Shown: positions 6,296-22,554, counted from the first letter of the stretch. The stretch is DNA of 64,000 nt from Thermoleophilia bacterium (GCA_041393415.1 JAWKKE010000001.1:778363-842362), one strand, 5' to 3'. The notes: generated by a model not told the origin, from the letters alone. Translations and numbers: made by a program.

Positions 6296-6394
6296 CCTTC
6301 GTGCCGGTTATGATGCTGTGTGCTGGACAGAACGCCTTTCAAGCGTTACGTCCAGTGGCGTGAGCCTAGCAATACCGCATTAGAAGGTTCTTAT
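6296..6394. promoter_or_regulatory. divergent promoter region between xis-like (leftward) and hypothetical-integrase (rightward) operons
   Basis: 99-nt AT-richer gap (ttatgatgctgtgtgctggacag...) between divergently oriented genes. Confidence 0.35.
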
Positions 6395-7414: not shown

Positions 7415-8664
7415 GAGGCTCCGTTCGTCATCGCGGCAACGAGCGCGGCGGTTCCTGGGAGTACATCTGCGATGTCGGTCTCGCGCCCGTGCAGCGCTGC
7501 CGGGAGTGCAAGAAGAAGTACTGGGTGGAACGGCGTCCCAAGGACAGCTGCCCTTCCTGTGGCGGCGAGCTCGTCGAATCCGAAGAACGTCGTCGTCAGA
7601 CCAAGGCGGGCTTTGCGACGAAGAAAGAGTGCCTGGCGGCGATGAACAAGGTCCTGGTCGCCGTCTCGGAGCACAATTACCAAGCGCCGAGCAAAGCCAC
7701 CGTGCGCGAGTACCTGACCAAGGAGTGGCTACCGGCAATCAAGTCAACGATCCGGCCCTCGACGTTCACCTCCTACACGCAGCACGTCGAGTGTCACATC
7801 TGTCCGCACCTCGGCTCGGTGAGACTGCAACAGCTCAGTGGCAGTCAAGTGAATGCGCTCTACGCGCTGCTTGCCGAACGCGGGGGCAAGAAGGGTGGAC
7901 CGCTATCGGCGCGCACGATTCACCATGTGCATACCTGTCTGCACAAAGCCTGCAAGGATGCCGTCAGGTGGGGCCTCATCACCAAGAACCCGCTTGAGGC
8001 CGCCGACCCGCCACGGGTGAAGGGTGGTGGTGCCAAGGAGATGAAGACCTGGACGAAAGAGCAGCTGCGCGCTTTCTTGGCGTCCGTGACAAACGATCGT
8101 CTCTCCCCGCTCTGGCACACCATGGCGATGACCGGGATGCGCAGAGGAGAGGCCTTGGGGCTGCGCTGGATCGACATCGACCTTGAGAACGCACGCCTCT
8201 CGGTGCGTAGGTCACTGGTGCCCACCAACCGCGAGGTCATCGTCAGTGAACCGAAGACGGCCAAAGGCAGAAGGGTGATCGCGCTCGATGCGGCAACCGT
8301 CGAGGTGCTGAAGGCCCAGGCCGCGCGTCAACTCGAAGAGCAACACCAGTGGGGTGACGCCTGGGTCGACACCGGACTCGTGTTCACGAAGGAGAACGGC
8401 GAGGCGCTCGACCCGGAGACGATCACGCGCTGGTTCCGGGTCGCCGTCAAGAACGCGATGCTGCCGGAGATCAGGCTGCACGACCTGCGGCACACGCACG
8501 CGACGCTGGCGCTGCAGGCCGGCATCCATCCCAAGGTGGTCTCAGAGCGTCTGGGGCACGCGACGGTGTCGATCACGCTGGATACCTACTCGCACGCCAT
8601 TCCGGCGATGCAGGAAGAGGCGGCAGCGATGATCGCAGCGCTCGTGCTGAACGGCGCCGCCTAG
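7411..8664 (+). CDS. int: tyrosine site-specific recombinase (phage integrase) with N-terminal CxxC...CxxC zinc-ribbon insertion
   Basis: C-terminal catalytic motifs HDLRHTHAT (HxxR) and LGHATVSITLDTYSH (Tyr nucleophile), plus the R in MRRGEALGLRW. N-terminal QRCRECKKKYW...DSCPSCGG four-Cys cluster. GTG start at 7411 overlaps the upstream stop. Confidence 0.85.
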   Translation: MRGSVRHRGNERGGSWEYICDVGLAPVQRCRECKKKYWVERRPKDSCPSCGGELVESEERRRQTKAGFATKKECLAAMNKVLVAVSEHNYQAPSKATVREYLTKEWLPAIKSTIRPSTFTSYTQHVECHICPHLGSVRLQQLSGSQVNALYALLAERGGKKGGPLSARTIHHVHTCLHKACKDAVRWGLITKNPLEAADPPRVKGGGAKEMKTWTKEQLRAFLASVTNDRLSPLWHTMAMTGMRRGEALGLRWIDIDLENARLSVRRSLVPTNREVIVSEPKTAKGRRVIALDAATVEVLKAQAARQLEEQHQWGDAWVDTGLVFTKENGEALDPETITRWFRVAVKNAMLPEIRLHDLRHTHATLALQAGIHPKVVSERLGHATVSITLDTYSHAIPAMQEEAAAMIAALVLNGAA

Positions 8665-8687
8665 CCGAATCGCCAACCACGCAAAGT

Positions 8688-9929
8688 CTACATCTCTTCC
8701 GCGGCCTCACACGCCAATCTCACGCTGGCTTCGTGAAATGCCTCGCATGTCTGCTGCGTCACCCTGTTCAGGATTCGCAGCACGATGATCGTGTCCAGAG
8801 TCGGCGCAACCGCGCCGAGAGCAGAACTGACTTGCGTCAGAGAGATACCGGCATTCTGGCCCGGATCAGACATCCCGGCATTGCTGGGGCCAGCCAGAAG
8901 CAGGTCGGTGTCGCCGAGCAACCCGAGCTTGAACAAGACTCCCTTCGGGTTCGCATGGACGTTGTGACTGGCGAGCCTATAGTGAGCCCTCATGTGGTCA
9001 ATGCCTGCGTCCTCCCGAATATCCCGGAACTTCGGGTCCTTCAGACCAAGCGCATCGGCTGCCCACCCGTATTGCCGGTCGAAATCCGCACCGTACTTCG
9101 CGACCAGTTCAGCGTGCCGTCGACGAGTCGCAGCCAGTTCCGCATCACTCATACGCTCGTAGCCAAGCTTCTCGCGACACTCATCGTAGTCCCGCACCGC
9201 TCTTGCCGACTCAACGGCTTCGTGGTCAACGTATCTCTGAGCGACCAGCTCTCCGTGATGTCGGAGGAACAGCGCCACCGCGGCAATCTCGTGAAGGGTA
9301 CGCCAGCGCGCCATCGCACCATCCGAGAACCCCTCAGCGAGCAGGCAGATGATCTCGTCTGTCACCTGGCACGCCCTCGCGTGCAGTCGCAACAGCACGT
9401 CGCAAAGCACGGGGGATTCCGTCTGCTCACAGCGTCTCAGAGTCGTGTTGACGAGATCGCCAAACTCACGCGACACGGTGAGCAGCATGCGCAGTAGGTC
9501 AATGCCTTCACCCCATCGCCCGTGGAGCCGATCGCGGAAGCCGTCGCGCTCCAGCAGTTGCCTCTCCTGCTCCAGCGCCCAACTCTCGCGAAGACTGGCG
9601 AGGATCAGCTCGGACGCTTTGTCGCCGACATCGTCGACGATTGCTGATACACCCTCTGTCATGAACGTGTCGAGGCGACCATCGATCCGCGCCAGATCAG
9701 CTGCAGTGATCCGTACCTCCGTACGCTCGTTTCCCATACCGTCGTCGAATGAGAACGAGTCGCCTGCGTCGTCCTTCAGATGGCGAAAGAGATTCTCACG
9801 CTCCTCTTCCCCGACGGGAATGCCCATCGCAGCGAGCTTCTCAGTGATGACGGTCGCTGCGATTCTGTAGGGAACATCCGCAAGTTCGTGGTCGAGAATG
9901 CGCTGATACGATCCCTCGTATTCCCACAC
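8688..9929 (-). CDS. hypothetical cargo protein (~414 aa); start uncertain, longest ORF extends to 10025
   Basis: Long ORF between the integrase and tRNA. The internal GTG at 9929 follows a GGGAGGGG RBS; the longest start is a TTG at 10025. No recognisable catalytic motif. Confidence 0.4.
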   Translation of the reverse strand: MWEYEGSYQRILDHELADVPYRIAATVITEKLAAMGIPVGEEERENLFRHLKDDAGDSFSFDDGMGNERTEVRITAADLARIDGRLDTFMTEGVSAIVDDVGDKASELILASLRESWALEQERQLLERDGFRDRLHGRWGEGIDLLRMLLTVSREFGDLVNTTLRRCEQTESPVLCDVLLRLHARACQVTDEIICLLAEGFSDGAMARWRTLHEIAAVALFLRHHGELVAQRYVDHEAVESARAVRDYDECREKLGYERMSDAELAATRRRHAELVAKYGADFDRQYGWAADALGLKDPKFRDIREDAGIDHMRAHYRLASHNVHANPKGVLFKLGLLGDTDLLLAGPSNAGMSDPGQNAGISLTQVSSALGAVAPTLDTIIVLRILNRVTQQTCEAFHEASVRLACEAAEEM

Positions 9930-10425
9930 AGTGACCCCTCCCGTCCGGCCGAGGCATCTCCCCGGCACGATGGCTGCTTGCCCCGACGCACGCAGGACAG
10001 CTCGCAGCGGCGTTCCGCTCCGCAACGAGCTTGACGCCCGGACTCATCATCCACGAACACGATCTTGTCCGAAGAGGTGTACAGAGCCATCGCCAAGGTT
10101 CAGCGATTACGCTAGCATTCCCCCGTGCAGGACCGAACGGTACCCAGCGTGGTGGAGGGCACCGCCGATGTCACCGTCATATGTATCTCGCGACACCTCA
10201 ACCTCGTTGGCGACAAACAAGACTGTTCCATGAAGTACTGCACGCGGGTCGAACGCCACGAGCGTCGATCCTGGCCGTCCAACGATCACGCAGACTGCGA
10301 GCGCCTGGCGCGCCAACCCGCCATCGCTGCCAAAGCCAACGAGGGCGCGACCATTCCACAACCCACCTCACCAGCTAGGCCGCGACAGGCGATCCGCCAA
10401 CTTGGAGAGAGTCATGCGTACCTAG

Positions 10426-11775
10426 CTAGACCCACAGATCGCCCAGGAGGTCCCCTAGTTTGATCGGACGGGATCCGTACTTGAGAATCCCCAGTCCCTC
10501 AAGCCGAATGCCGACAACAGCTCGCGAAACATCGAAGAGCCCGGCCAGTCGTCGTAGCGTGACGTGCAGGTTCTGTACATTGCATGGCTGACTGTCTACG
10601 AACAGAGCGCCGAAACCCTTGTCCACAATGCCGAGCTCTCCAGCTACAGTAGCGAAGGCGCTCAGAAACGCTTCCTGTGGCAGCAACAGGCATCCCGCGA
10701 GGTAGTTGGCCTGCCACTCCAGCCGGCCTACTTCAGAGGCTTGCGTCCAGGTATCTCCATCTAGCCCAAAGTCGCTTTCTTGACAGAACTCGCGCCGCAT
10801 GTACTCCCCGTGTTTCAGGATGTGGTGGGACAACTCGTGGGCGAGGGTGAACCTCCATCTCACGGGCGACTGGTTCCGCACGAATAGCTCTATACGCAGC
10901 GGATCGAATGAGATGGCACCTAGGACCTCCTCTGAGAATGCCTCTCTGCCGCCGGCTGGGTGCTCAACAAGCTCCAAGCCGCTTCGTCGGTTCTCGAGTT
11001 CAACTACTCTCTTGAGCGACGTTGGGCCGCTCTGGTACCCCGTCCGTTCGAGAGTCTCTCTGGCCCGGTCCTCGATGTAATCGGTCGGAAGGAAGGGGAC
11101 AATACTGCTGCCTCGGGATTCCCTGTTCTGCAGTCGCGCGACTTCTTGCTGTTGAAGGCCAGAACGCGACACAACATCTCCGATAATCTTTCGCAGAGAG
11201 TTAGTCGCTATTTCTGGAGTAAGGCAGTACAGATCGTAGAAATGACTTCGGAATGATGCTTGCGTAATGGCAGACTCTATTCGCTCTCTACTATCGATCT
11301 CTTTCGAAGTCGAGATTGTGGATGCCGAACGCCTGAGTTCCCATTTGAACTGATCGCCGTCGAAGTACCTCAGAACAGCGAGTTTCTTTGATTTGGCGAA
11401 TGCGAGGGCGCCAGACTGAAGGGCAGTTCGTGTAGCAAGTATGCCTTTGACGTTCGCACCTGTTACTTGATCGATCTTCTGGTAGAACTCCTCAACATCG
11501 TCAACCGGAACCAAGTGACTGTAGTTCTTGCACTCGACCAGAACGACCAGCGAAGGTTCCTCCTCTCCCGGAAGGCTGATCTCCACGGCAATATCAAAGA
11601 CGATGTCGCTGCCCCGCGCAGCGGAGTGGTAGGGCTGCTTGCGAAGCACTCTGCAACACTCTGCCTTCGCCCAGAATCTCCCGGCCTCTATCTCGCCTTC
11701 CAAGAGCTCCGCGATCCTGACCTCCAGCGCGTCGCCGCGCGCTACGGTGCTCTGTTGGCCCTTTGTCTTGCTCAC
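10426..11775 (-). CDS. fusion protein: N-terminal Mrr-like PD-(D/E)xK restriction-endonuclease domain plus C-terminal ImmA/IrrE-family HExxH metallopeptidase domain
   Basis: N-terminal GSDIVFDIAV...LVVLVECKNY (D...E-x-K of the Mrr catalytic domain). C-terminal HELSHHILKH (HExxH) in a DUF955-like context. GTG start at 11775 after an AGGAG RBS; the longest ORF reaches 11811. Confidence 0.6.
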   Translation of the reverse strand: MSKTKGQQSTVARGDALEVRIAELLEGEIEAGRFWAKAECCRVLRKQPYHSAARGSDIVFDIAVEISLPGEEEPSLVVLVECKNYSHLVPVDDVEEFYQKIDQVTGANVKGILATRTALQSGALAFAKSKKLAVLRYFDGDQFKWELRRSASTISTSKEIDSRERIESAITQASFRSHFYDLYCLTPEIATNSLRKIIGDVVSRSGLQQQEVARLQNRESRGSSIVPFLPTDYIEDRARETLERTGYQSGPTSLKRVVELENRRSGLELVEHPAGGREAFSEEVLGAISFDPLRIELFVRNQSPVRWRFTLAHELSHHILKHGEYMRREFCQESDFGLDGDTWTQASEVGRLEWQANYLAGCLLLPQEAFLSAFATVAGELGIVDKGFGALFVDSQPCNVQNLHVTLRRLAGLFDVSRAVVGIRLEGLGILKYGSRPIKLGDLLGDLWV

Positions 11776-12131
11776 TGTGGCTGCTCCTAGCGAGGGCCGT
11801 GGACGGCGCATGACTGGTCTGCTGCCGTCCGCACAGTCCGTCTACCGCGACTCGACTCTTCTGCATGTGACCCTACCACCAGCCCGACAGGCATCCATGC
11901 AGACTGGACGTGCACGCGAGGAGGCCCGGCAGTCGTGCCTGCGAGGGTGGGTCGCGCCTCCTGCCGCCACAGCCACTGCATGCCGCCTTGTGCGCGACTG
12001 TAGCGATGCCTCTCGTCAGCAGAATGTCGGCCGAATGTCGGCGTGGGCCTTCCGCGGCGCCCAAACGAGGCCACCGACGCCGAACGCCCCAGCACGGCGG
12101 CGCCCGGTGCAGCACCAAACAGCAGGGTGGG

Positions 12132-12207
12132 TGGTGCCCCCGGCTGGAATCGAACCAGCGACACCAGGTTTAGGAAACCTGTGCTCTATCCACTGAGCTA
12201 CGAGGGC
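12132..12207 (-). tRNA. tRNA-Arg (anticodon CCT), 76 nt, CCA encoded
   Basis: Reverse complement reads GCCCTCGTAGCTCAGTGGATAGAGCACAGGTTTCCTAAACCTGGTGTCGCTGGTTCGATTCCAGCCGGGGGCACCA. Cloverleaf has a 7-bp acceptor stem, GTTCGATTC T-loop and anticodon loop TTCCTAA. Confidence 0.85.
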
Positions 12208-12300
12208 AAAGTGCTGATTTGCAGGGATTTGTCTCTGCGGTGGCCCCGCAAAGGGTACCACAAGTTGCTAATTGGCTGCTAAATCTGCAGGAAACGCGGC
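12169..12300. repeat. direct repeat copy A: 46-nt perfect core (12169-12214 = tRNA nt 1-39 plus 7 nt upstream) followed by ~85 nt of diverged flank
   Basis: 12169-12214 is identical to 17545-17590. 12215-12300 is ~75% identical to 17591-17670. Confidence 0.8.
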
Positions 12301-12507
12301 GATGGCTATCGCGCCCGCCACTTGAGCAGAAACGAGCTGCGCCAGCCCGGCCACACCGGCGACGGCTGCGATCACCGCAGCGGCCACGCCGACAATCAGA
12401 TCAGCGGTCCGCCAGATCTTGCAGTTGGCGAACTGCGACTCGGACGCCCAGAGGCAGGCTTCGTATGCCCGGCTCGCCTCGGCATCGAGTTCCTCGACTT
12501 GCGACAC
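12268..12507 (-). CDS. hypothetical small hydrophobic protein (79 aa)
   Basis: ORF with an Ala/Val-rich C-terminal helix; overlaps the att-like flank. Weak support. Confidence 0.2.
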   Translation of the reverse strand: MSQVEELDAEASRAYEACLWASESQFANCKIWRTADLIVGVAAAVIAAVAGVAGLAQLVSAQVAGAIAIAAFPADLAAN

Positions 12508-12623
12508 CCCGGATTCCCCCCTTCAAGCAGCGCGCCTTCTGCTGAGCGTCCGTCTGTGGCTCAGTATATGCTCGGCTCGTCCTGCGAGAACGAGGAAAGT
12601 CGCAGCCAGACGGGGGGCGTTCG

Positions 12624-13148
12624 ATGGGACTGACGGAGGACATCATTGCGACCGCATGCGCGGTGGCGACGGCAGGGACGAGCCGGATAGCGGCCTGCGC
12701 GCGAAGCGGCGCAAGCTGTGAGGGCTGGCTGAAGGTCGAGCTGTTGCACGCCCTGGACGGGCTGCCGGGGGTCGTGGTGACCCCCGAGGTGGGCAACGTC
12801 GACCTCACCGTCCGCCGGGGAGACGAGCTGGTTCTCTGCGAACTCAAGACCTTCCCGACAAACTACGGCCGCGCCGGCAAGCCGATCACCAACTTCATCG
12901 CCGGCGTAGTGCGCGACCTGGAGAAGCTCGCCTCGCGAACCGACGAGAAGACGAGAGGCCTAGCGATCTGGATGGCGTACTACATCCCCGAGCCCGTACC
13001 GCCGCAGTGGCCGGAGCACCTGGCCAAGGTGAGGCGTGCCGCCGCCGAGCAGCTCCACGTCGAGAAGATCCGGCTCGATGGCCCGCGGTTCGCGCACCTG
13101 TACGTGATGCTCGCAAGACAGACAGACAGCAGCCGGAGGCGCTCGTGA
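12624..13148 (+). CDS. island operon gene 1: small PD-(D/E)xK-like nuclease-fold protein (174 aa)
   Basis: Motif arrangement E(KVELLHAL)...VDLTV...GDELVLCELK (D-x(n)-E-x-K). Stop overlaps the next gene's GTG. Confidence 0.45.
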   Translation: MGLTEDIIATACAVATAGTSRIAACARSGASCEGWLKVELLHALDGLPGVVVTPEVGNVDLTVRRGDELVLCELKTFPTNYGRAGKPITNFIAGVVRDLEKLASRTDEKTRGLAIWMAYYIPEPVPPQWPEHLAKVRRAAAEQLHVEKIRLDGPRFAHLYVMLARQTDSSRRRS

Positions 13149-13720
13149 TCACGGCCCAGATCCTCAAGAAGCAGCGGGACCGGCTGCGGCTCGACGACGC
13201 GGATTGGCAGGCGCACCAGCAGCTGAAGGCCAAGTTCGCTGCGGCGCGCAAGCAGAGGGACCCGATGTACCTCACGGAGAGCGAGTTCTTCGAGGTCGCC
13301 CACTGGAAGCTCATCAACCAGTACGGGCGGGCGAAGCGCTACCTAGAGAGCAACTCGGCAGAGCGCATCGAGGCCATCACGAGCCGCGCCCTCAGCTTCC
13401 GCGACCCGGACCCCGACATCGAGATGGTCGGCCGCGTCACCATGCTGCGCGTCCTCCCCGGCGTCGGCATGGGCGTCGCCTCTGCGATCCTCGCCCTCTG
13501 CTTCCCGGAGCAGTACGCCCCGATCGACTTCCGCGTCTGGCGCCAGCTGTTCGACTCCGACCTGAGCATGTTCGAGGTCCCGGAGTACCGGCGGTATCTC
13601 AAGAGGCTGCGCGAGCTGGCAGACGAACTGGCATCGCTCGATCCCGCCAACGACTGGCCCATCCAGCTCGTCGACTACTTCGCCTGGGAGTACGACGCCG
13701 CGACCTCCAAGGCGGGCTGA
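13145..13720 (+). CDS. island operon gene 2: hypothetical protein with helix-hairpin-helix-like LPGVGxxxA motif (191 aa)
   Basis: GTG start overlapping the upstream stop (GTGA). LRVLPGVGMGVASAILALCF resembles the HhH of HhH-GPD DNA-binding proteins. Confidence 0.45.
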   Translation: MITAQILKKQRDRLRLDDADWQAHQQLKAKFAAARKQRDPMYLTESEFFEVAHWKLINQYGRAKRYLESNSAERIEAITSRALSFRDPDPDIEMVGRVTMLRVLPGVGMGVASAILALCFPEQYAPIDFRVWRQLFDSDLSMFEVPEYRRYLKRLRELADELASLDPANDWPIQLVDYFAWEYDAATSKAG

Positions 13721-14496
13721 TGCAGGACCGGTACTTCGGCGACATCGGCGACTTCGCCAAGTACGGGCTGCTGCGCGCGGTCACGGCGGGCCAGCCGTCG
13801 CTCAGCCTCGCGGTGCTCTGGTACCTCGTGCCCGACGAGTCCCACACGAAGGACGGCCGCCACATCGACTACCTCGAACCGACGACCACGAACCTCGCCC
13901 GCTTCCGGACCTGCGATCCTGAGCTCTACGATCGGCTCGGCGACCTCGTGCGAGGTGGCCGCCGCGACGTCTCTGCGGTCCCGGAACATCTCCTACTCCC
14001 TGAGGGAACCGTCTACCACGCCACTCCGCTGGACTTCTCCACAGTGCCCTGGGCCACACGGGCGGCGCTACGCCAGCGCTGGCTCGGAAGCGCCATCGAC
14101 ACGGGCGCCCGCGCGGACATCATGTTCCTCGACCCCGACAACGGTCTCGAGGTGGGCTGCGACGCCTGCGATGCCGCAGGACCCAAGTACGCCTACTACG
14201 ACGACCTCTCGGGAATCTCGACTGGCCAAACGCTGATCGTCTATCAGCACGCGACCCGCACCGGGACCTTCGAGGAGCAGCTCGAGGGCCGCATGAACGA
14301 CCTGGGGCGTTGCCTTCGCCGGCCGCAGGAGAACCTCCTGGCCATGCGCTGGCGGCGCGTGAGCCCACGCGCCTTCATCTTCGCCCTGGCCGATTCACAC
14401 CGTGCTGTGATCCTCCACAGGCTCGGGGCGATGCTCGCCTCACCGTGGGGCGGGAACTTCGAGCTCGTGCGTTCCGAACTCCTCCAAGAAGCCTGA
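13720..14496 (+). CDS. island operon gene 3: conserved hypothetical protein (258 aa), no fold assigned
   Basis: ATG overlapping the upstream TGA (TGATG). N-terminus MQDRYFGDIGDFAKYGLL; internal IMFLDPDNG motif. Confidence 0.5.
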   Translation: MQDRYFGDIGDFAKYGLLRAVTAGQPSLSLAVLWYLVPDESHTKDGRHIDYLEPTTTNLARFRTCDPELYDRLGDLVRGGRRDVSAVPEHLLLPEGTVYHATPLDFSTVPWATRAALRQRWLGSAIDTGARADIMFLDPDNGLEVGCDACDAAGPKYAYYDDLSGISTGQTLIVYQHATRTGTFEEQLEGRMNDLGRCLRRPQENLLAMRWRRVSPRAFIFALADSHRAVILHRLGAMLASPWGGNFELVRSELLQEA

Positions 14497-15050
14497 TGGC
14501 TGACTCGGTCTTCTCAGCACTGCCGGCACAGACCCAGAGCGTGCTGGCGCAGCTCTCAGCCGCGGTCGAGGGCGTCCAACCCACCAGTCTCAGGTCCTGG
14601 AAGATCGAGCCGACGGTGCTGTTGGGAGAGACCGCCGCCGCCGGCCTCCTGCGAGAAGTTTCGGACTGGGCCGGCACGGGTCAGGCGTGTCTGTACTACC
14701 TGGAGTGCCGCTCGGCCGACATCGACCTCGACAAGGTCGAAGAGGCCTTCGTCCACGCAAAGGCGCGGAAAGCGCCGGCGCGTGCCTACCCGCGTCTGAA
14801 CTCGCCGGGCGCTTGCCTCTACGTCGGGTGCTCCCGGTCTTTGGCGAAGCGGCTCAGGGAGCATCTCGGCTACGGCGCGGAAACGACCTACGCGCTGCAG
14901 CTGGCGCACTGGGCGATCCCGCTCTCGCTGCAGCTGGGCTTCTTCTGCGCGAAGTACACGGAGGAGACTCCTCCCGGCGTCATGCAAGCTCTCGAGGACA
15001 CGCTGTGGGGAATCCGACGGCCGATGTTCGGTCGCAGAGGCGCCAAGTAG
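14496..15050 (+). CDS. island operon gene 4: GIY-YIG-like nuclease-domain protein (184 aa)
   Basis: ACLYYLEC (GIY-like), then ACLYVGCSRSLAKRLREHLGYG (YIG plus conserved R and E/H). Start overlaps the upstream stop (TGATG). Confidence 0.45.
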   Translation: MADSVFSALPAQTQSVLAQLSAAVEGVQPTSLRSWKIEPTVLLGETAAAGLLREVSDWAGTGQACLYYLECRSADIDLDKVEEAFVHAKARKAPARAYPRLNSPGACLYVGCSRSLAKRLREHLGYGAETTYALQLAHWAIPLSLQLGFFCAKYTEETPPGVMQALEDTLWGIRRPMFGRRGAK

Positions 15051-15103
15051 AAACGGCCCGCGAGCCACCACACAAGTCAGTGCTACTGAAGGAGCAAGCG
15101 CAT

Positions 15104-16123
15104 ATGGGATACGACACGGTCGACGAGAGCCTGCAGCGGGGCGTTGCCCCGGAGTTCATAGGGCACCTCACCTCCGGGGTGCTTCTCCCGGTGCTCGAGC
15201 GGGTGCGGCACGACGACACGCTGACCCTGGAGATCAGGAACGGCTACGTCGACGTCTACTACCGCGGCGGGCGCGTGCTCGGCATCCACGGCAACGGCAG
15301 GTCAGGGCGCTTCCGCGCAGAGTTCGACATGAACTACTGCAACATCGACCCGGCCTACTGCCCGACTCTGCCAAAGGAGCCAGCGAAGAGCATCGCCTCG
15401 GAGGACGACGCCCGCGAGTGGGTCGAGGCGCTTGCCTCCTACAAGCAGGTCATGGACGTCTTCTTCTCCGACCACCCGAAACTCGAGCGCGAGTTCCAGC
15501 AGAACGTCCTGCGCGACAACAACCGCCACCTCGTCGGCGAGCGCACCGAGTACACGATCCTCGACATCGAGTACGCTCAGTCGCCGCGCGCCTTCCCCGA
15601 GAACTCGAACTTCCGCTTCGACATGGTCGGCATGCTCTGGCCGACGCCAGGCCGCAATCGGCGTAGCCGCCTCGCCACGCCCGTGCTCATCGAGATGAAG
15701 GCAGGTGACGGGGCGCTCGCCTCCCATGCGACGGGCGACGGCAAGCGACTGCCGGGCCTCGCGAAGCACGTCGACGACATCGAGGCCTTCCTCGAGCCCG
15801 AGCCGCCGGCCGCGACCTCGCCGCGGTACGACCTGCTGCGCACCGAGCTGACGACCACGCTGCGCCTGAAGCAAGAACTCGGCCTGCCGTCCATCCCCAA
15901 GACGATGAAGACGCTGGAGATCGAGCAGTGGAACGACCGACCCCAGGTGCTCTTCATCCTCGCCAACCACCAGCCCGCTTCGACGATCCTCAAGAAGGAG
16001 CTCGCCAAGCTCCCGCCCCGGGTGCACGCCGACTACTTCGTCGCGAAGGTGTCCTACGCCGGCTACTCGCTGTTCTCTGACAACATCACGCCGCTCGACG
16101 ATTTCATCGCCGAGATCGGCTGA
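15104..16123 (+). CDS. island operon gene 5: PD-(D/E)xK-like nuclease-fold protein (339 aa)
   Basis: AAGGAG RBS 8 nt upstream of the ATG. YTILDIEYA ...(~40 aa)... PVLIEMKAGDG fits a D...E-x-K core. Confidence 0.5.
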   Translation: MGYDTVDESLQRGVAPEFIGHLTSGVLLPVLERVRHDDTLTLEIRNGYVDVYYRGGRVLGIHGNGRSGRFRAEFDMNYCNIDPAYCPTLPKEPAKSIASEDDAREWVEALASYKQVMDVFFSDHPKLEREFQQNVLRDNNRHLVGERTEYTILDIEYAQSPRAFPENSNFRFDMVGMLWPTPGRNRRSRLATPVLIEMKAGDGALASHATGDGKRLPGLAKHVDDIEAFLEPEPPAATSPRYDLLRTELTTTLRLKQELGLPSIPKTMKTLEIEQWNDRPQVLFILANHQPASTILKKELAKLPPRVHADYFVAKVSYAGYSLFSDNITPLDDFIAEIG

Positions 16124-16131
16124 GAGCGCCC

Positions 16132-17427
16132 ATGCACTACGAGGTCCGACGCGGCAGCCGCGAGATCGGCGGCATGTGCATCGAGGTCGGCGCGGACGAC
16201 GGGACGCGCGTCCTGCTCGACCTCGGCATGCCCCTGGTCGCCGCCGACGGCGGCGACTTCCCCTGGGGCACGCCGCAGCGGCCGACCGAGGAGCTGATCG
16301 CCGAAGGCGTGCTCCTCGACATCCCTGGCGTCTTCCCGCACGACCCGTCGGCGCCGGGCGTCGCGGCCATCGTCCTGACGCACTCGCACCTCGACCACTG
16401 GGGCCTCGCACACCACGCCCATCCCGCGATACCCGTCTACGGCAGCGAGGGGACCGTGGCCATCCTCGAGGTCGGCCGGGTCTTCTTCCCCGACGCCAAG
16501 CTGCCCGCCGACCTGCGCGTCCTGCCGAAGGACCAGCCGCTGCACCTCGGTGGCGTGAGGCTCACCGCGATCCCGGTCGACCATGCCGCTCCAGACTCGC
16601 GCGCCCTGCTGGTCGAAGCCGACGGCCAACGGCTGCTCTACACCGGCGACCTGCGGGCCCACGGTCGGACGGCCTTCCGCTTCGAGCGCATGCTGCGCGA
16701 CGAGCGTCTGCACGGCGTCGACTGGCTGCTCTGCGAGGGGACGACCCTGGGGTCATCGGGCGGCTCGCACGGCCTGCGTAGCGAAGCCGATGTCGAGGAC
16801 GAGCTGCTCGAGCTGGCGCGGGCGACGCCGGAGTCACTCGTGGCGGTCGTCGCCTCCGGCCAGAACCTCGACCGCCTGGTCTCCTGCTTCCGAGCCGCGC
16901 GTCGTTCCGGCCGGCAGCTGGTCATCGACCCCTACCAGGCCTACGTGCTCATGAAGCTGGAGAGCCTCAGCGGCAGCATCCCCCAGTTCACCTGGGACGA
17001 CGTGCGCGTGAGCTTCGTGCCGCACCAGGTCGAGCGCCTCAAGGACGCCGGCCTGATGGACCTTGCCCGCAAGATGAGCGCGCAGGCTCGGGCGTCGAGC
17101 GATGAGCTCGCCGCCGAGCCGGGCCGCTTCCTGATGTGCCTGCGAGGCAGCAGAGGAGGGACCAAGCTCTTCGACAAGATCGGGGCGGAGAAGGTCACAC
17201 TCGTCTGGTCGCTGTGGAGCGGGTACTGGAAGCGCGACTACTGCCCGATGCGAGAGTGGGCCGCCCGGCACGGGATCGGTGCGCACTTCGTGCACAGCGG
17301 CGGCCACGCCTGGCCCGAGGACCTGGAGCGTCTGAAGCAGGCCATCGGGGCCAAGGAGTCGTACTGGGTCCACACCGACATGCAGGCCCCGCTCGAGCCC
17401 GACGGGCCGCCGACGGCAGGTTGCTAA
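16132..17427 (+). CDS. island operon gene 6: metallo-beta-lactamase-fold hydrolase, possibly beta-CASP (RNase J/CPSF-like) nuclease (431 aa)
   Basis: HxHxDH motif (IVLTHSHLDHWG) plus downstream His/Asp residues. Begins 9 nt after gene 5. Confidence 0.65.
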   Translation: MHYEVRRGSREIGGMCIEVGADDGTRVLLDLGMPLVAADGGDFPWGTPQRPTEELIAEGVLLDIPGVFPHDPSAPGVAAIVLTHSHLDHWGLAHHAHPAIPVYGSEGTVAILEVGRVFFPDAKLPADLRVLPKDQPLHLGGVRLTAIPVDHAAPDSRALLVEADGQRLLYTGDLRAHGRTAFRFERMLRDERLHGVDWLLCEGTTLGSSGGSHGLRSEADVEDELLELARATPESLVAVVASGQNLDRLVSCFRAARRSGRQLVIDPYQAYVLMKLESLSGSIPQFTWDDVRVSFVPHQVERLKDAGLMDLARKMSAQARASSDELAAEPGRFLMCLRGSRGGTKLFDKIGAEKVTLVWSLWSGYWKRDYCPMREWAARHGIGAHFVHSGGHAWPEDLERLKQAIGAKESYWVHTDMQAPLEPDGPPTAGC

Positions 17428-17462
17428 ATAGTTGCTAAATCTGCGGGAAACCGCAGGCTCAC
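17416..17462. repeat. copy of the att-flank arm-type motif (gttgctaaatagttgctaaatctgcgggaaaccgcagg), tandem gttgctaaat x2
   Basis: Resembles 12258-12297 (caagttgctaattggctgctaaatctgcaggaaacgcgg). Lies just after the stop of the MBL-fold gene. Confidence 0.5.
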
Positions 17463-17544
17463 CCTCGAACCAGCGGCACGGCGAGCGCCCCAGAATGCCC
17501 CGGTTTACCCTCGAACGGCCCCGTTCGGGCACCCTCCCAGCCCT

Positions 17545-17670
17545 TTTAGGAAACCTGTGCTCTATCCACTGAGCTACGAGGGCAAAGTGCCTATTTGCAG
17601 GGCTTTCTCTCCGCGACGACTCGCCACAGGATACCACGAGTTGGCAATTCCCTGCTGAAGCTGCCGGCGG
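17545..17670. repeat. direct repeat copy B: partial tRNA-Arg (5' half, nt 1-39) 46-nt perfect core plus diverged upstream flank
   Basis: 17545-17590 is identical to 12169-12214. The tRNA match breaks off after the anticodon loop (cccttttagg vs accaggtttagg). Confidence 0.8.
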
Positions 17671-17799
17671 CGCGAGAGGCACCTCGGCCAGGAACCCACT
17701 CACTCCCCGCTCACGACGCGGTCGCTGATCCCAGAGCAGCGCGGCGACGGTCCGCTGCTCACTCTCCTGATTGACCCAGGCTTGTCGTACCATGGGCTC

Positions 17800-19071
<1,272 letters not shown>

Positions 19072-19146
19072 CTACTTCGATAGATTCGGTGTGACTCAGG
19101 CGCTCGCCGGGTCGGTGTCACGACGTCGACCAGAGAGAGGTGCACG

Positions 19147-20634
19147 ATGCCCGCTGGCAAGCCCAACATCCTCGTCCTGTGGGGAGACGACATCGGCCTC
19201 TGGAACCTCAGCTGCAACAACCGCGGCATGATGGGCTACCAGACTCCAAACATCGACCGCCTCGCCCACGAGGGCATCGGCTTCACCGACTTCTACGGCC
19301 AGCAGAGCTGCACCGCCGGCCGCGCCGCCTTCATCACCGGTCAGAACCCGCTGCGCACGGGACTCACCAAGGTCGGTCTGCCCGGCGCCGACTTCGGCAT
19401 CCGCCCCGAGGACCCGACAATCGCTGAGCTGCTCAAACCGCTAGGCTACGCGACCGCGCAGTTCGGCAAGAACCATATCGGCGACCGGGACGAGCACCTG
19501 CCCACCAACCATGGCTTCGACGAGTTCTTCGGCAACCTCTACCACCTGAACGCTGAGGAGGAGCCGGAGCATGAGGACTACCCGAAGGACCCGGACTTCA
19601 AGAAGCGCTTCGGGCCGCGCGGTGTGATCCACAGCTGGGCGCGGCCGGACGGCACGCAGAAGATCGAGGACACGGGTCCTCTGACGCGCAAGCGCATGGA
19701 GACAATCGACGACGAGGTCACGGCGCGCACCCTCGAGTACCTCGACGAGGTCACGCAGGAGGACAAACCCTTCTTCATCTGGTGGAACTCGACGCGCATG
19801 CACTTCCGCACGCACGTGAAGCCGGAGAACCGGGGCATCAGCGGGCAGGGCGAGTACAACGACGGCATGGTCGAGCACGACCGCCACGTCGGCATGATCC
19901 TCGACAAGCTCGACGAGCTCGGCATCGCCGAGGACACGATCGTCATGTACTCGACCGACAACGGCCCCCACTACAACTCCTGGCCGGACGCAGCGATCAC
20001 ACCTTTCCGCTCGGAGAAGAACAGCAACTGGGAAGGTGCCTACCGAGTGCCGGCTTTCCTGCGTTGGCCGGCGAAGTGGCAGAGCGGGGTGACGCTCAAC
20101 GGTATCGTCGCCCATCAGGACATGCTGACGACCTTCCTCGCAGCAGCCGGCGAGCCGGACGTGGCCGCCAAGTGCCGCGCCGGTCATGATGCCGCCGGCA
20201 AGACGTTCAAGGTCATCCTCGACGGGAAGGACATGAACGCCTACTTCGCCGGCGAAACAGAGGACAGCCCGCGCGAGTCGTTCTTCTACGTCAACGACGA
20301 TGCCGAGCTCGTCGCCCTGCGCCACGGCGACTGGAAGTTCGTGTTCAAGGAGCAACGGGCGCACCAGCTCGCACTCTGGCTCGAGCCCTTCGTCGAACTG
20401 CGCGGCCCGAAGATCGTGAACCTGCGCCGCGACCCCTTCGAGCGCGCGCTTACCGATTCCAACACCTACTACGACTGGATGATCGACCGCATCTTCATGG
20501 TCGTTCCGGCACAGGCGCTGGTCGCTCGGACGATCGAGGAGTTCAGAGAGTTCCCGCCGCGCCAGAAGCCCGCATCATTCAGCCTCGACCGTGCACTCGA
20601 AAAGCTCCAGGAGTTCACCGGCAGCCAGAGCTGA
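19147..20634 (+). CDS. arylsulfatase-family sulfatase (Cys-type, variant C-T-A-G-R active-site pentapeptide)
   Basis: LVLWGDDIG...QQSCTAGRAAFITGQNP sulfatase signature region. Adjacent to the cognate maturase. Confidence 0.8.
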   Translation: MPAGKPNILVLWGDDIGLWNLSCNNRGMMGYQTPNIDRLAHEGIGFTDFYGQQSCTAGRAAFITGQNPLRTGLTKVGLPGADFGIRPEDPTIAELLKPLGYATAQFGKNHIGDRDEHLPTNHGFDEFFGNLYHLNAEEEPEHEDYPKDPDFKKRFGPRGVIHSWARPDGTQKIEDTGPLTRKRMETIDDEVTARTLEYLDEVTQEDKPFFIWWNSTRMHFRTHVKPENRGISGQGEYNDGMVEHDRHVGMILDKLDELGIAEDTIVMYSTDNGPHYNSWPDAAITPFRSEKNSNWEGAYRVPAFLRWPAKWQSGVTLNGIVAHQDMLTTFLAAAGEPDVAAKCRAGHDAAGKTFKVILDGKDMNAYFAGETEDSPRESFFYVNDDAELVALRHGDWKFVFKEQRAHQLALWLEPFVELRGPKIVNLRRDPFERALTDSNTYYDWMIDRIFMVVPAQALVARTIEEFREFPPRQKPASFSLDRALEKLQEFTGSQS

Positions 20635-20693
20635 GCCGCCCGTCTGGACTGGCGAGGCGAAGGCGAAGGCGAGCAGCACGATCGCGACACCCA

Positions 20694-21434
20694 ATGAGTG
20701 GCGCGAACAACCAAGAGATCGGCATGAGAAGGTCAGAGCGCCGACAACTGAGAGCCGCGCGTGCCGAGCGGCGGGCCGCAACGCCTCTCGCTGGCGCCGT
20801 CGCCGGCATCCTTTTCGCGCTCCTGTTCTCCCTGAGCGTCGCACTCCTCGAATCGAGCATGAGCGACCTGCCGCACGACACCGGCTCATGGCTGGCCACC
20901 AGCGTCGGACGCCTCAAGCTGGCGATCGCGCTCATACCCTTCGCGGGGCTGTTCTTCCTATGGTTCATCGCCGTGGCGCGAGAGAGACTGGGTCGGTTCG
21001 AAGATCAGTTCTTCGCGACCGTCTTTCTGGGCAGCGGTCTGCTGTTCTTGGCAATGATCTTCGCTGCGGCCGCCGCGGCGGGAGCGATTGCAGCCACCTA
21101 TGCAAGCGCTCCTTCCTCCTTCTCGACCAGCATCACGTACATCTACGCACGTCACATGGTCGCGCAGATCTTCAACGTCTATGCGCTCCGGATGGCAGCG
21201 GTCTTCCTCATCTCCCAAGCCACACTATGGCTACGAACCGGTGTAATGCCGCGATGGATGGCATTGCCGACCTACGGCGTGGCACTGGTCCTGCTGTTCG
21301 TCGTCTCGCAATCGACTTGGGTCGTGCTGATCTTCCCGGCCTGGGTCTTGGTTGTCAGCGTGTACATCCTCGTCGTGAATCTCACTCAGGCCGACGCAAC
21401 GCGCCTCGAGGAAGAGGAAGACAAAGCCCCGTGA
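20694..21434 (+). CDS. hypothetical integral membrane protein (246 aa, ~6 TM)
   Basis: Multiple hydrophobic helices; no motif recognised. Confidence 0.45.
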   Translation: MSGANNQEIGMRRSERRQLRAARAERRAATPLAGAVAGILFALLFSLSVALLESSMSDLPHDTGSWLATSVGRLKLAIALIPFAGLFFLWFIAVARERLGRFEDQFFATVFLGSGLLFLAMIFAAAAAAGAIAATYASAPSSFSTSITYIYARHMVAQIFNVYALRMAAVFLISQATLWLRTGVMPRWMALPTYGVALVLLFVVSQSTWVVLIFPAWVLVVSVYILVVNLTQADATRLEEEEDKAP

Positions 21435-21484
21435 GGAGAGACTGTGTCCCCCCCTGACACCAGCATCGAGAACAGGAGAACGCG

Positions 21485-21829
21485 ATGAGCAACCAAGAGG
21501 CGGCGCCGGAGACCAAAGGTGTCACGGTGGAGTCACTGGCGACGGTCGACCTCGGCCCTGAGATAGAGGGCATGGCGGGACGCCAGCTGCGCATGCGCTT
21601 GGTAACGATCCAGCCCGGAGGCGTCTTCGGCCCGACTCATGACCACAAGGACAGACCGGGCATCGTCTACATCCTGCAAGGAACGATTACCGACCTCCGC
21701 GACGGCGTCGCCACGGACTATGGTCCGGGGGTTGGCTGGCCGGAGGACCGGAACACGACACACTGGCTCGAGAACAGGGGAACGATTCCGGCGCTGGAGA
21801 TCTCGGTCGACATCGTCAGACAAGAGTAG
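21485..21829 (+). CDS. cupin-domain protein (114 aa)
   Basis: AGGAGA RBS 8 nt upstream. IQPGGVFGPTHDHKDRPGIVYILQGT resembles cupin motif 1 (G-x5-H-x-H) with motif 2 downstream. Confidence 0.5.
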   Translation: MSNQEAAPETKGVTVESLATVDLGPEIEGMAGRQLRMRLVTIQPGGVFGPTHDHKDRPGIVYILQGTITDLRDGVATDYGPGVGWPEDRNTTHWLENRGTIPALEISVDIVRQE

Positions 21830-21886
21830 ACGCGCCACCGACGAGCAACCGATTCGACAATATGTGTGCGGCGATGAGAGCGGCCT

Positions 21887-22426
21887 CTACGACACCGCTC
21901 GACCCATCTCGAACGCCTCGTCCAACAGTGGGCTTCCTTCGACGTCGTGCTTCTCCCACAACCCTGTGCCGAAAAGGACGCCCTTCTCCTTCGCACCCTC
22001 GAGACACGAGGTAAAGCCCCGCAATCCCTCCAGCGTCGGCCCCAGACGATCCCGACTCTCCACAGCGGCCGTCAGGATGAAATAGAAGTCCTTGTTCGTG
22101 AGCCTCCGCCAACACGCGTAGGTTCGGTCAATCAGTGTCTTCATCTGGGCACTCATCGAATAGAAGTAGACGGGAGTCGCCAGCACGATCACGTCCGCAG
22201 CGAGCATGCGATCCAGGATGGCGGCCATTTCGTCTCTCTGGACACACACGCCCGTGTGCCGGCACCCATCGCACGCGCGGCAAGGCGCGATTTCCTCATC
22301 CCTCAGAACAACCTTCTCAACCTCGTGGCCAGCCTCCTGCGCGCCGGCGACGAAACGGCTGCATAGCTGATCCGAATTGCCCTCTCTCCGCGGGCTGGAC
22401 GAAAGTACGAGCACTCGCTTCTTCAT
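21887..22426 (-). CDS. flavodoxin-like fold NAD(P)H-dependent FMN reductase / iron-sulfur flavoprotein family
   Basis: MKKRVLVLSSSPRREGNS (FMN_red N-terminal signature), a Cys cluster CRACDGCRHTGVC, and VIVLATPVYFYS. Confidence 0.6.
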   Translation of the reverse strand: MKKRVLVLSSSPRREGNSDQLCSRFVAGAQEAGHEVEKVVLRDEEIAPCRACDGCRHTGVCVQRDEMAAILDRMLAADVIVLATPVYFYSMSAQMKTLIDRTYACWRRLTNKDFYFILTAAVESRDRLGPTLEGLRGFTSCLEGAKEKGVLFGTGLWEKHDVEGSPLLDEAFEMGRAVS

Positions 22427-22554
22427 GCCACTACGCCCTTCTCAAGGTGATTACTGTTCGCAGGACCGGCCTGAACGGAAAGCCAGCGGGGGCGGAGTCG
22501 CTCCCTTTCGACCCCGCCCCCGCTGTCGTGACCGATCCAGCGTCTGCGTTCGGC

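Follow-up and report, generated by a model that had tools for sequence, protein, structure and literature searches.

Nearly all mobile elements that integrate into tRNA genes replace the 3' end of the gene, which is usually explained by the fact that no promoter is then needed. A reverse-orientation element that integrates into a tRNA gene was reportedly described from Mesorhizobium loti by Zhao and Williams in 2002 (J Bacteriol 184:859). Rare as it is, the reverse orientation is on record: PMC6563490 cites the M. loti element, reviews describe targeting of the tRNA 5' end as considerably less frequent than targeting of the 3' end, and PMC8371274 gives the tRNA 5' half as attB for the pTN3-like integrases and TKV-type elements of Thermococcales (Cossu 2017; Krupovic & Bamford 2008). 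Integrases of the usual orientation that act at the anticodon loop are given there as a sublocation class of Williams 2002 (PMC8371274). In streptococci, CIMEs and tandem accretion at tRNA genes arise by successive integration into the same target (PMC5704250), while in tRNA-dependent lysogeny the core is ~10 bp, the tRNA is not rebuilt and an element-borne tRNA compensates (PMC10865867). The Islander criteria for genomic islands call for an intact tDNA at one end, a cognate direct fragment at the other and an integrase inside; where the fragment is a 5' one, its place has to be upstream of the tDNA (PMC4383910).

Here we analyze a 5.3-kb segment (12215-17544) of a 64-kb stretch of DNA, hereafter the window. 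With good confidence we interpret it as an integrase-less, CIME-like integrated island, a member of a reverse-orientation family at tRNA-Arg(CCT) and the newest of several stacked units.

The tRNA-Arg Gene and Its Displaced 5' Half

The intact tRNA-Arg(CCT) gene at 12132-12207 on the minus strand is the only one reported by ARAGORN, and Rfam is concordant (RF00005, 69 bits). A direct repeat search pairs 12169-12298 with 17545-17674 (130 nt, 82% identity); the first 46 nt match perfectly and the remaining 84 nt are ~73% identical, close to the ~75% given in an earlier, sequence-only reading of this DNA. As that reading had proposed, the perfect repeat (12169-12214 and 17545-17590) duplicates the 5' half of the gene with promoter-proximal flank, and on the plus strand it runs from tRNA nt 39 to 1 and then through 7 nt of upstream sequence. 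Its further suggestion, that the two copies are attL and attR cores with diverged arms, agrees with the data below, the left copy being the attL core and the right copy, a displaced tRNA 5' half, the attR core. Together with the adjoining P arm, the attR core yields a sub-threshold tRNA match in Rfam (22.6 bits), and the 64-kb window holds no second copy of the tRNA 3' half. A perfect 46-mer repeat within 64 kb is far beyond chance.

Identity between the copies breaks off precisely at the 3' edge of the anticodon loop, after tRNA nt 39. The crossover, placed by the earlier reading in the 5' half or anticodon region, would therefore have to fall within tRNA nt 1-39, most likely in the 7-nt anticodon loop because identity ends there, and tRNA nt 1-39 with the region upstream would be island-supplied.

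Could the repeat instead stem from a segmental or tandem duplication of the tRNA region that involved no mobile element and was followed by loss of one 3' half, or from misassembly? The upstream flanks of both copies are homologous (~73%), MAG contigs can be chimeric at repeats, and a Logan contig (L083) breaks inside the repeat. However, neutral decay would not have left 46 of 46 positions matching next to flanks at 73% (~0.73^46 < 1e-6), and the Logan break is the expected result of a 46-nt repeat assembled with 31-mers. The island interior and right junction are seen again in independent assemblies: L082 is 99.8% identical to the window over 14464-26122, and L083 corresponds to window 12185-17574. 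Moreover, the arm-core-arm architecture surrounds unrelated cargo in many independent contigs, and since related loci share the arms around wholly different cargo, a tRNA duplication artefact, which the earlier reading had named as something that would count against its proposal, does not account for them. We regard duplication or artefact as extremely improbable.

Island Cargo

Between its intact arms the island carries a nuclease-rich operon of six plus-strand genes as sole cargo. Gene 1 (12624-13148, 174 aa) is weakly similar to YraN-type PD-(D/E)xK nucleases, with an NCBIfam match far under its cut-off, gene 2 (13145-13720, 191 aa) shows weak MutY/HhH-like similarity and gene 4 (14496-15050, 184 aa) is weakly GIY-YIG-like; GC3 frame analysis supports genes 1 to 4. 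Gene 3 (13720-14496, 258 aa) belongs to no recognisable family. Gene 5 (15104-16123, 339 aa) has PD-(D/E)xK-like invariant residues (D154/E197/K199), and its confident predicted model found no structural relative among solved structures. Gene 6 (16132-17427, 431 aa) has a metallo-beta-lactamase fold resembling RNase J / beta-CASP enzymes (Pfam Lactamase_B_2 at 1.5e-16, with an NCBIfam match too), and the gene's stop codon falls within the P arm's first motif. Homologues of gene 1 occur in right-side islands at two metagenome loci (L171 and L150), of gene 2 in L150 and of gene 4 in L171.

None of the six genes is a recombinase by Pfam, NCBIfam or PADLOC, and no transfer genes were seen among them. 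In tblastn with five integrase types, the 64-kb window returned solely 7375-8664, outside the island, and it holds no homologue of Int-R, the tyrosine integrase family (PF00589) associated with related islands. Lacking an integrase, the island would be a decayed, CIME-like derivative whose mobility is either historical or helper-dependent.

Attachment Arms and a Probable Promoter

The P' arm (flank A, 12215-12300), read on the minus strand toward the tRNA, comprises a leader block, the extended -10-like TGGTACCCT (12260 to 12252), tandem arm-like motifs (12264-12284) and CTGCAGGAAAC. L087 and L105 match this arm at 94% identity, its homology to dozens of loci ends sharply at 12295-12301, and the consensus of at least 67 non-redundant flanks contains tandem AGTTGCTAA and an extended -10-like TGGTAnnCT. 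The P arm (17416-17544) consists of two tandem copies of GTTGCTAAAT (17420-17440), the palindrome CTGCGGGAAACCGCAG (17441-17456), a spacer and CCCTCGAACGGCCCCGTTCGGGCACCCTCCCAGCCCT adjoining the core; its homology to other loci begins at 17416-17418, its final 37 nt are identical in L183, and mean column identity is 80% in an alignment of 12 listed loci, the window included.

At no more than one mismatch, GTTGCTAAAT occurs in the window solely at 12264-12284 and 17420-17440 (four matches, 0.8 expected). Across loci, tandem AGTTGCTAA x2 lies ~55 nt from the core on the P' arm (at least 67 flanks) and ~93 nt from it on the P arm, a fixed distance in 12 loci among the matches listed. Dozens of unrelated loci thus conserve, on either arm, the tandem motif noticed in the sequence-only reading. 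Short repeated motifs on both arms at fixed core distances are a lambda-type attP trait, and the tandem AGTTGCTAA are putative arm-type integrase binding sites; in Int-R, the stretch N-terminal to the catalytic domain is unassigned by Pfam. The third, weaker motif copy (17637-17671) is the positional homologue of the first in the repeat alignment and lies in flank B (17591-17674, minus strand), which shares ~73% identity with flank A, can be aligned to the P' arm family and retains the leader and TGGTATCCT with degenerate arm motifs. Flank B is probably the decayed P' arm of the previous occupant.

The box TGGTAnnCT is >95% conserved in at least 67 P' arms, ~45 nt upstream of the tRNA, and native flanks carry a similar extended -10 box ~12 nt upstream. 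The P' arm probably supplies the promoter of the rebuilt tRNA, a role suggested by conservation since a simple generic sigma-70 scan of the arm found no promoter.

Related Loci, Empty Sites and Stacked Insertions

A metagenome scan with the 39-nt tRNA half as query gave at least 121 copies in at least 120 loci, among which the frequencies of listed matches are biased. At least 53 intact tRNAs have the full conserved P' arm, at least 8 a partial arm, at least 8 a variant arm and at least 30 other flanks. A further 17 copies or more were scored as 5'-half-only. Two of these do not represent fragments: L118 carries an intact tRNA with an indel, and in L133 the 3' half has diverged.

Among the matches listed, Int-R is in every case encoded on the same strand as the tRNA, 0.16-3.6 kb past the P' arm; of the 24 long loci whose tRNA has a P'-arm flank, 14 contain it, versus none of five with other flanks (Fisher p = 0.04, from small numbers). 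Another right-side integrase (L191, L184) accompanies a different arm motif, an indirect hint that the integrase may bind the motif. At four empty sites (L086, L101, L162, L118) the tRNA adjoins a native extended -10 flank, with a DUF5679 gene within 96-257 nt and glnA after it, the usual order at such sites. One locus, L107, has a P arm, a 5' fragment, a native-type flank and DUF5679 at 127 nt; it is an attR on a native site, where its identity extends no further than the tRNA 5' half when set against L120 and L194. The earlier reading had proposed a comparison of this kind to define the empty attB. For this strain neither an empty site nor an excised circle of the island was found, and its sole close relative among the matches listed (L082) carries the island too.

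It might be argued that the motif-bearing flank is simply the native tRNA-Arg(CCT) promoter of one host clade and the tandem motif a regulator site, leaving the P arm and the 5'-half fragment as the only marks of element ends. The flank is indeed very common and has a conserved promoter-like element, and flank B adjoins ordinary metabolic genes. Yet if the crossover falls inside the tRNA, whatever adjoins that gene's intact copy in a bounded island has to come from the element. The P arm, though no promoter, bears the same tandem motif, and Int-R adjoins the flank. Among the matches listed, DUF5679 lies within 450 nt of none of 65 P'-arm-type flanks versus five of 25 other flanks, so motif-bearing flanks never adjoin this backbone and native-type flanks do. 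We consider the native-promoter reading very improbable, and prefer to see the flank as an arm of the element, which may itself have originated from a native promoter.

Other loci carry islands in various states of decay. L091 combines the tRNA, a 2.7-kb bounded island with a 157-aa Int-R remnant, a P arm, a core, a P' arm and a full Int-R, and shows decay in place. L150 has an integrase fragment beside the homologues of cargo genes 1 and 2, the integrase is split over two adjacent reading frames in L173 and L200, and L146 (7.0 kb), L128, L195, L155 and L100/L180 hold bounded islands in which no integrase could be detected. On comparison of these loci, a family of small mobile islands appears to be widespread in uncultured Actinomycetota, stacking at tRNA-Arg.

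To the right of flank B in the window, an older inserted region (17675-25300) encodes anSME (anaerobic sulfatase-maturating enzyme), a sulfatase, a cupin, a flavodoxin-like protein, an Amt transporter and others; it contains no integrase, nor a tRNA fragment at its right end. The conserved host backbone begins with the DUF5679 gene (25402-25551, minus strand), followed by glnA (25670-27115). Because the DUF5679 gene lies 96-257 nt from the tRNA at empty sites, ~13 kb (12208 to ~25300) is inserted relative to them. The island would then be the newest unit of a ~13-kb tandem accretion on the tRNA 5' side, its right-hand flank being a decayed arm of the older insertion (17591 to ~25300) and not chromosomal. 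That the older insertion arose by the same mechanism is suggested by flank B alone.

The Element on the tRNA 3' Side

A phage-like element of the usual orientation (E1, 1-12131), which runs off the window start, abuts the tRNA on its 3' side. It encodes a ParB-methyltransferase, a DnaB-like helicase, an excisionase-like HTH_17 protein and a plus-strand tyrosine integrase (7375-8664; Pfam Phage_integrase plus SAM_3), with low-GC cargo (DUF5677, Mrr_cat+IrrE) between integrase and tRNA. Homologues of this integrase, ~75% nt-identical, lie left of the same tRNA in at least 14 loci, which bears out the earlier idea of tandem islands at one tRNA.

The same reading had asked whether the neighbouring integrase binds the repeated motif. 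On this alternative the enzyme would bind GTTGCTAAAT, would have integrated the island and would serve elements on both sides of the tRNA. It is the sole tyrosine recombinase in the window and adjoins the same tRNA, and in most loci with both sides visible its family accompanies motif-bearing flanks. This co-occurrence, however, equals the general frequency of motif-bearing flanks (~70% of loci listed); the family is also found by native, motif-less right flanks (L179, L124), and some right-side islands stand where it is absent. The stretch from this integrase to the tRNA 3' end lacks the motif, the fragments that left-side remnants displace are 3' halves, as in the usual orientation (L157, L085), and it is Int-R, only ~26% identical to the E1 integrase, that sits directly beside the motif-bearing arm. 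The E1 integrase is thus probably not the enzyme of the island, and we give its service on both sides little credence.

Even less likely, in our view, is one large composite element extending from beyond the window start to 17544, with its own complete internal tRNA-Arg and a disrupted host tRNA whose 3' half lies off-window. E1 crosses the window edge, so that its far end is unseen, and phages with a compensating tRNA are known (PMC10865867). Against this, many loci have the left part without the right or the right without the left, intact tRNAs bound right-hand islands in L146, L128, L155, L195 and L091, and 39-46 nt of identity rebuilds the tRNA at the junction. We therefore see E1 as separate from and independent of the 5.3-kb island.

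Proposed Integration and Its Implications

The family attP would span ~260 bp, made up of a P arm (tandem AGTTGCTAA sites, palindrome, spacer), a core equivalent to tRNA nt 39 to 1 and a P' arm (leader, extended -10-like promoter, tandem AGTTGCTAA), with a dedicated Int-R gene in complete members after the P' arm, reading toward the tRNA. Recombination with the chromosomal tRNA would link the 3' half already in place with the 5' half and promoter that the element brings, and would push the previous 5' half and flank to the far end (17545-17674). The copy in the window would be movable only with Int-R in trans.

More speculatively, and with only an outside chance of being right, the ~260-bp attP module could be no fossil but an active docking platform at which Int-R in trans captures, swaps and stacks integrase-less, defence-type cassettes in an integron-like manner. 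The putative arm-type sites would overlap the sole promoter of the rebuilt tRNA, so that integrase occupancy could tune the supply of this rare AGG-decoding tRNA; with an unrelated family replacing the 3' half, the whole tRNA gene would be mobile-element DNA.

The family carries a promoter-like box in an arm borne by ~70% of listed tRNA-Arg copies, and would accordingly offer a natural test case for why integration is biased toward the 3' end and how an element takes over expression of an essential gene. One tRNA would be used from both sides by unrelated integrases, and small defence-gene islands would build up at tRNA-Arg and then lose their integrases.

Comparison With Known Systems

By the Islander criteria, the end tDNA and a same-strand 46-nt fragment are both present, the 5' fragment lying upstream of the minus-strand tRNA, an allowed configuration, while the integrase required inside is lacking; island finders that require an integrase would overlook such islands. 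Tandem position beside related elements, retention of attL and attR and loss of integration genes are shared with CIMEs, here with recombinase and transfer genes gone and both arms and a perfect core intact. Classical CIMEs derive from ICEs or IMEs, target the 3' end and are moved by conjugation of a composite, whereas no transfer genes were seen in the island family and accretion is on the 5' side, so that the newest unit adjoins the gene and would bring a new promoter each time. The island may derive by decay from an autonomous relative: intermediate stages are found in L091, L150, L173 and L200, with no remnant in the window.

Unlike tRNA-dependent lysogeny, the island has a core of 39-46 nt and an intact tRNA at the junction. 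As with the anticodon-loop integrases, its identity block ends at the anticodon stem-loop, consistent with a 7-bp overlap at the anticodon loop and the stem as core sites (PMC8371274). It would be the mirror image of that class, since identity runs from the loop to the 5' end and not to the 3' end, and on the element side the sequence beyond nt 39 has no preserved stem complement.

Closest are the elements that use the tRNA 5' part, the shared segment here being identical over nt 1-39. The Thermococcales elements likewise rebuild an intact tRNA with element-side expression signals, yet these archaeal elements carry the att site within an integrase gene that integration splits ("suicidal"), and the tRNA is expressed from that gene's promoter (PMC8371274). 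Complete members of the present family keep an undivided integrase gene next to an arm with a promoter-like element of its own. The M. loti element reportedly recombines, as the island does, with the tRNA 5' part and restores it, and an element that does so must bring expression signals. The integrase that lies next to the att site in reverse-orientation elements is absent from the window's island and present, as Int-R, in its relatives. Host phylum (here Actinomycetota, Thermoleophilia-like), tRNA and integrase family all differ from those of the M. loti element, and here the comparison points to a widespread family with defined ~260-bp arms, tandem arrays and integrase-less derivatives.

Direct Repeats and Conserved Arms at the tRNA-Arg Gene

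The sole tRNA gene of the window, a tRNA-Arg(CCT) at 12132-12207 on the minus strand (Rfam, 69 bits), overlaps with its 5' half the left copy of a 130-nt direct repeat (12169-12298 and 17545-17674, 82% identity) that bounds a six-gene island (12215-17544). The two copies match perfectly over their first 46 nt and at ~73% over the remainder; in the tRNA sense, the 46-mer comprises the 7 nt preceding the gene and its nucleotides 1-39, the identity ending one base beyond the anticodon loop, after which the right copy runs into unrelated sequence. No other copy of the tRNA 3' half was found within the window. Within the window, a tandem GTTGCTAAAT motif occurs only at 12264-12284 and 17420-17440 (4 matches vs 0.8 expected), and a third, degenerate copy, at 17637-17671, is homologous by position to the first one. 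The repeat is thus confirmed as the sequence-only reading described it (46/46 identical core, ~73% identical flank, and motif copies), and its interpretation of the repeat as att-like ends of an island is supported, with corrections.

We scanned metagenomes with the 39-nt tRNA 5' half as query; at least 120 loci were returned, and these decided the interpretation. Among the matches listed, 67 non-redundant sequences share a conserved module of ~95 nt upstream of the tRNA, here called the P' arm, with the consensus toward the tRNA ...GTTTCCTGCAGATTTAGCAAC-TTATTAGCAAC-TCGTGGTATTCT...CCCTGCAAATCGGCACAAT, then the tRNA, in which both TTAGCAAC repeats and GTGGTA are >90% conserved. In the window, the flank upstream of the intact tRNA (flank A, 12215-12300) is 94% identical to those of loci L087 and L105, and homology to P'-arm loci stops sharply at 12295-12301; the flank beside the right repeat (flank B, 17591-17674) is a diverged copy. 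Identity in the window spans 46 nt, vs 39 nt for the tRNA part, since flank A and the displaced flank B are both P' arms of the AAAGTGC subtype. At 12333-12349 (minus strand), just upstream of the P' arm in the tRNA sense, a terminator-like hairpin precedes TTTCTGCTCA and could insulate the tRNA promoter from transcription leaving the island.

Among the matches listed, 17 copies scored as containing the 5' half alone; two of these do not represent fragments, as L118 is an intact gene with an indel and the 3' half of L133 has diverged. On the non-tRNA side of the fragment, 135 nt form a second conserved module, the P arm (window 17416-17544), in 12 loci including the window, with a mean column identity of 80%. 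Its layout is a tandem pair of AGTTGCTAA, the palindrome CTGCRGGRAACYGCAG, a spacer, and a CCTCRAA...CCCG block abutting the core; homology to the window begins at 17416-17418, and the 37 core-adjoining nt are identical in L183. The P arms at L115 (952-1120) and L177 (6391-6559) carry four copies of the AGTTGCTA motif, not two.

The P and P' modules flank the tRNA half in the same orientation, and connecting them through the core yields a ~260-bp unit in which each arm has repeated sites, a predicted attP with the size and layout of the lambda type. Viral contigs scanned with the 46-mer, the integrase and the tandem motif yielded no match, nor did phage and plasmid records scanned with the reconstructed attP. 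A 5390-bp Logan contig considered as a circular form of the island corresponds to window 12185-17574; both its ends lie 30 nt inside a repeat copy, the break expected for 31-mers, and it is therefore uninformative on circular forms.

The displaced 5' half, together with the adjoining 39 nt of the P arm, gives a full-length, sub-threshold Rfam tRNA match (17506-17583, minus strand, 22.6 bits), carried mostly by the true 5' half. This region contains a hairpin (CGAAC-GGGGCC-GTTCG) and a CGAGGGT able to pair with the acceptor 5' strand, and the match may represent a relic or mimic of a whole tRNA in attP, or chance. At 17465-17479, 14 of 15 positions agree with the variable loop and T arm of the tRNA, which had suggested a complete-tRNA relic in the arm; this match was taken as chance because the stretch is not conserved in the 12-locus alignment.

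Empty Sites and the Extent of Inserted DNA

Among the matches listed, 30 loci have unrelated upstream flanks. The native-type flanks inspected (L086, L095, L101, and L107) carry an extended -10 box ~12 nt from the tRNA, and at L086, L101, L162, and L118 a DUF5679 gene lies within 96-257 nt of the tRNA, followed by glnA, these empty-site genes being homologous to window 25402-25551 and 25670-27115. At L107, a P arm and 5' fragment adjoin a native-type flank with DUF5679 127 nt away, a configuration that represents attR on a previously unoccupied site. Its counterpart, an intact tRNA with the native flank, is present at L120, L124, L179, and L194, which are attB sites with the 5' side unoccupied. 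Among the loci listed with at least 600 nt of right-hand sequence, DUF5679 lies within 450 nt of the tRNA in none of 65 motif-bearing flanks vs 5 of 25 other flanks. Together with the empty and occupied sites, this distribution indicates that the motif-bearing flank is element DNA, the P' arm, and the inserted DNA in the window extends from 12208 to ~25300.

The block to the right of the right repeat (17675-25300) contains the genes for anSME (an anaerobic sulfatase-maturating enzyme) and a sulfatase, together with those for a cupin, a flavodoxin-like protein and an Amt transporter. It lies between the tRNA and backbone genes that at empty-site loci are the neighbours of the tRNA, so this seemingly ordinary metabolic block also falls within the insertion hot spot; no tRNA fragment was found at its right end. 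A search of genome contigs for an empty site through the anSME gene was uninformative, and the anSME region proved to be itself inserted. The closest anSME-bearing genomes are those of uncultured Thermoleophilia (MAGs, 81-85% nucleotide identity), syntenic from ~17780 only, and they provide no empty site because no tRNA lies near their anSME gene; an exact-protein look-up of anSME returned no match. A second MAG, 99.8% identical to the window (L082; GCA_036751705.1, DAIOUA010000004.1), has a contig that ends inside the island at 14464, which could reflect strain variation or a coverage drop.

Integrases and Stacked Islands

A hidden Markov model (HMM) built from all tyrosine recombinases in the loci separated several families. 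One of these, Int-R (PF00589), is ~26% identical to the integrase of E1, the phage-like element on the tRNA 3' side, and is always encoded to the right of the tRNA (its 5' side) and on the same strand, 0.16-3.6 kb past the P' arm, and always with a AGTTGCTAA-type arm, the repeats of which it presumably binds. Int-R was found in 14 of 24 long motif-bearing loci vs none of five others (Fisher p = 0.04; among the loci listed), and the window contains no Int-R homologue or remnant. A third integrase (L191 and L184) adjoins, at a distance of 91 nt, a flank with the same leader and TGTGCCG repeats in place of the arm motif, so that a different integrase clade goes with a different arm motif. By sequence inspection, the complete Int-R elements L137 and L136 carry Vsr-Dcm, McrBC-like, DUF262, and HNH genes but none for transfer or virions, and they look like small defence islands.

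At L091, the tRNA and its P' arm are followed by a 2.7-kb island that contains a 157-aa Int-R remnant; beyond it come a P arm and core, a second P' arm, and a full-length Int-R. Bounded islands without a detectable integrase occur at L146 (7.0 kb, with genes for secreted proteins, a transporter, and a MarR-like regulator), L128 (6.8 kb), L195 (8.5 kb, packed with IS elements), L155 (2.7 kb), and L100 and L180 (1.8 kb). The displaced fragment is followed by another P' arm at L091, L128, L155, L195, and L146, indicating that tandem accretion is common.

Cargo of the Island

The island carries six tightly packed plus-strand genes (12624-17427, from GC3 frame analysis), with start and stop codons overlapping at three junctions. 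The last encodes a metallo-beta-lactamase (MBL) fold resembling RNase J/beta-CASP enzymes, the only solid family assignment among the six; the others offer weak hints of YraN-type PD-(D/E)xK, MutY/HhH, and GIY-YIG domains. PADLOC returned no match in the six-gene cargo, and no recombinase is present among the six genes. Nuclease-type hints recur across the operon, including a second PD-(D/E)xK-like protein in addition to the MBL/beta-CASP-like protein, and it may be an undescribed defence or DNA-processing system.

Gene 5 (15104-16123) has 193 homologues, with D154, E197, and K199 invariant in 44 sequences; its structure was predicted with very high confidence (pLDDT 92.9), and a Foldseek comparison of the model with solved structures gave no match at E <= 0.001. 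Homologues of cargo genes 1, 2, 4, and 6 occur in the right-side islands L150, L171, L100, L180, and L195, and gene 5 recurs with a gene-6 homologue shortened by ~370 nt in L081, a different element with an integrase, where the pair adjoins an HTH_17 gene; the cargo is mosaic. The stop codon of the MBL-fold gene (17425-17427) falls inside the first GTTGCTAAAT arm motif, and this junction is ~82% conserved in L100, L180, and L195.

The Element on the 3' Side

E1 extends left of the tRNA past the window start and encodes a ParB-methyltransferase (phrog_498, 1e-116), a DnaB-like helicase, an excisionase-like HTH_17 protein, and a tyrosine integrase (7375-8664). At least 14 loci have a relative of this integrase (~75% nucleotide identity) on the plus strand, 0.9-3.6 kb to the left of the tRNA 3' end, and some of these loci have native right flanks (L179 and L124). 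The variable integrase-tRNA interval looks like a cargo hot spot; in the window, a low-GC stretch (52-60%) at 8688-11811 between integrase and tRNA contains a DUF5677 gene and an Mrr_cat-IrrE/M78 fusion that matches the PADLOC CapP and RmrA models.

Decayed left-element remnants at L157 and L085 are bounded by 3'-half fragments (nt 76 to ~30), which indicates that E1 uses the usual orientation. Such 3' fragments were seen solely in these two remnants, and a search for the far end of E1 through a tRNA 3'-half repeat found none in the window or in 12-14 kb of relatives. Nothing but short contigs or the same strain came up for the helicase and for gene 5, which gave no extension of E1 past the window. 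Loci with the identical 39-nt 5' half (L085-L204) have at least six T-stem sequences with compensating changes (GGCTGG/CCAGC, GGCAGG/CCTGC, GGAAGG/CCTTC, GGTAGG/CCTAC, GGCTAG/CTAGC, and GGGCTG/CAGCC), and the 3'-half variants have no clear association with the left integrase.

A Model for 5'-Side Integration and Comparison With Known Systems

In the model that we propose, an Int-R element would recombine its attP with the tRNA-Arg(CCT) gene, and at a native site only nt 1-39 are common to element and target. Everything 5' of the crossover has to be supplied by the element, so the overlap is expected at the 3' edge of the identity block, the 7-nt anticodon loop. The product would consist of the host 3' half, the element 5' half, and a P' arm with a promoter-like box that may drive the gene, and the previous 5' half with its flank would come to lie at the far end; new arrivals would integrate beside the gene and push earlier units outward. 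Having intact arms, a perfect core and no integrase, the island at 12215-17544 would be a derivative resembling a cis-mobilizable element (CIME) as defined in PMC5704250, whose present mobility, if any, would require Int-R in trans. Both halves of the tRNA gene, along with its promoter, are probably of mobile-element origin in this genome, the 3' half by analogy, from the position of E1 and the remnants at L157 and L085.

The Int-R-type family is widespread, with a well-defined attP that bears a predicted promoter and a target common to an unrelated element on the opposite side. Recombination at the 5' part of tRNA genes is considerably rarer than at the 3' part and seldom met in bacteria (reviewed in PMC6563490 and PMC8371274), and examples named in part of this literature include an M. 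loti element (Zhao & Williams 2002) and archaeal TKV/pTN3-type elements (PMC6563490). The present case fits this known, rare 5'-side kind. While the anticodon-loop class (PMC8371274) has the usual orientation, the arrangement proposed here is its mirror image, and while the integrase gene of the pTN3 type is split, that of Int-R elements is not. Islander requires an internal integrase, which this island lacks, and tRNA-dependent lysogeny (PMC10865867) does not apply since the tRNA is rebuilt. Finally, the arrangement differs from classical CIME accretion in that stacking takes place on the 5' side, each unit bringing a new predicted promoter.
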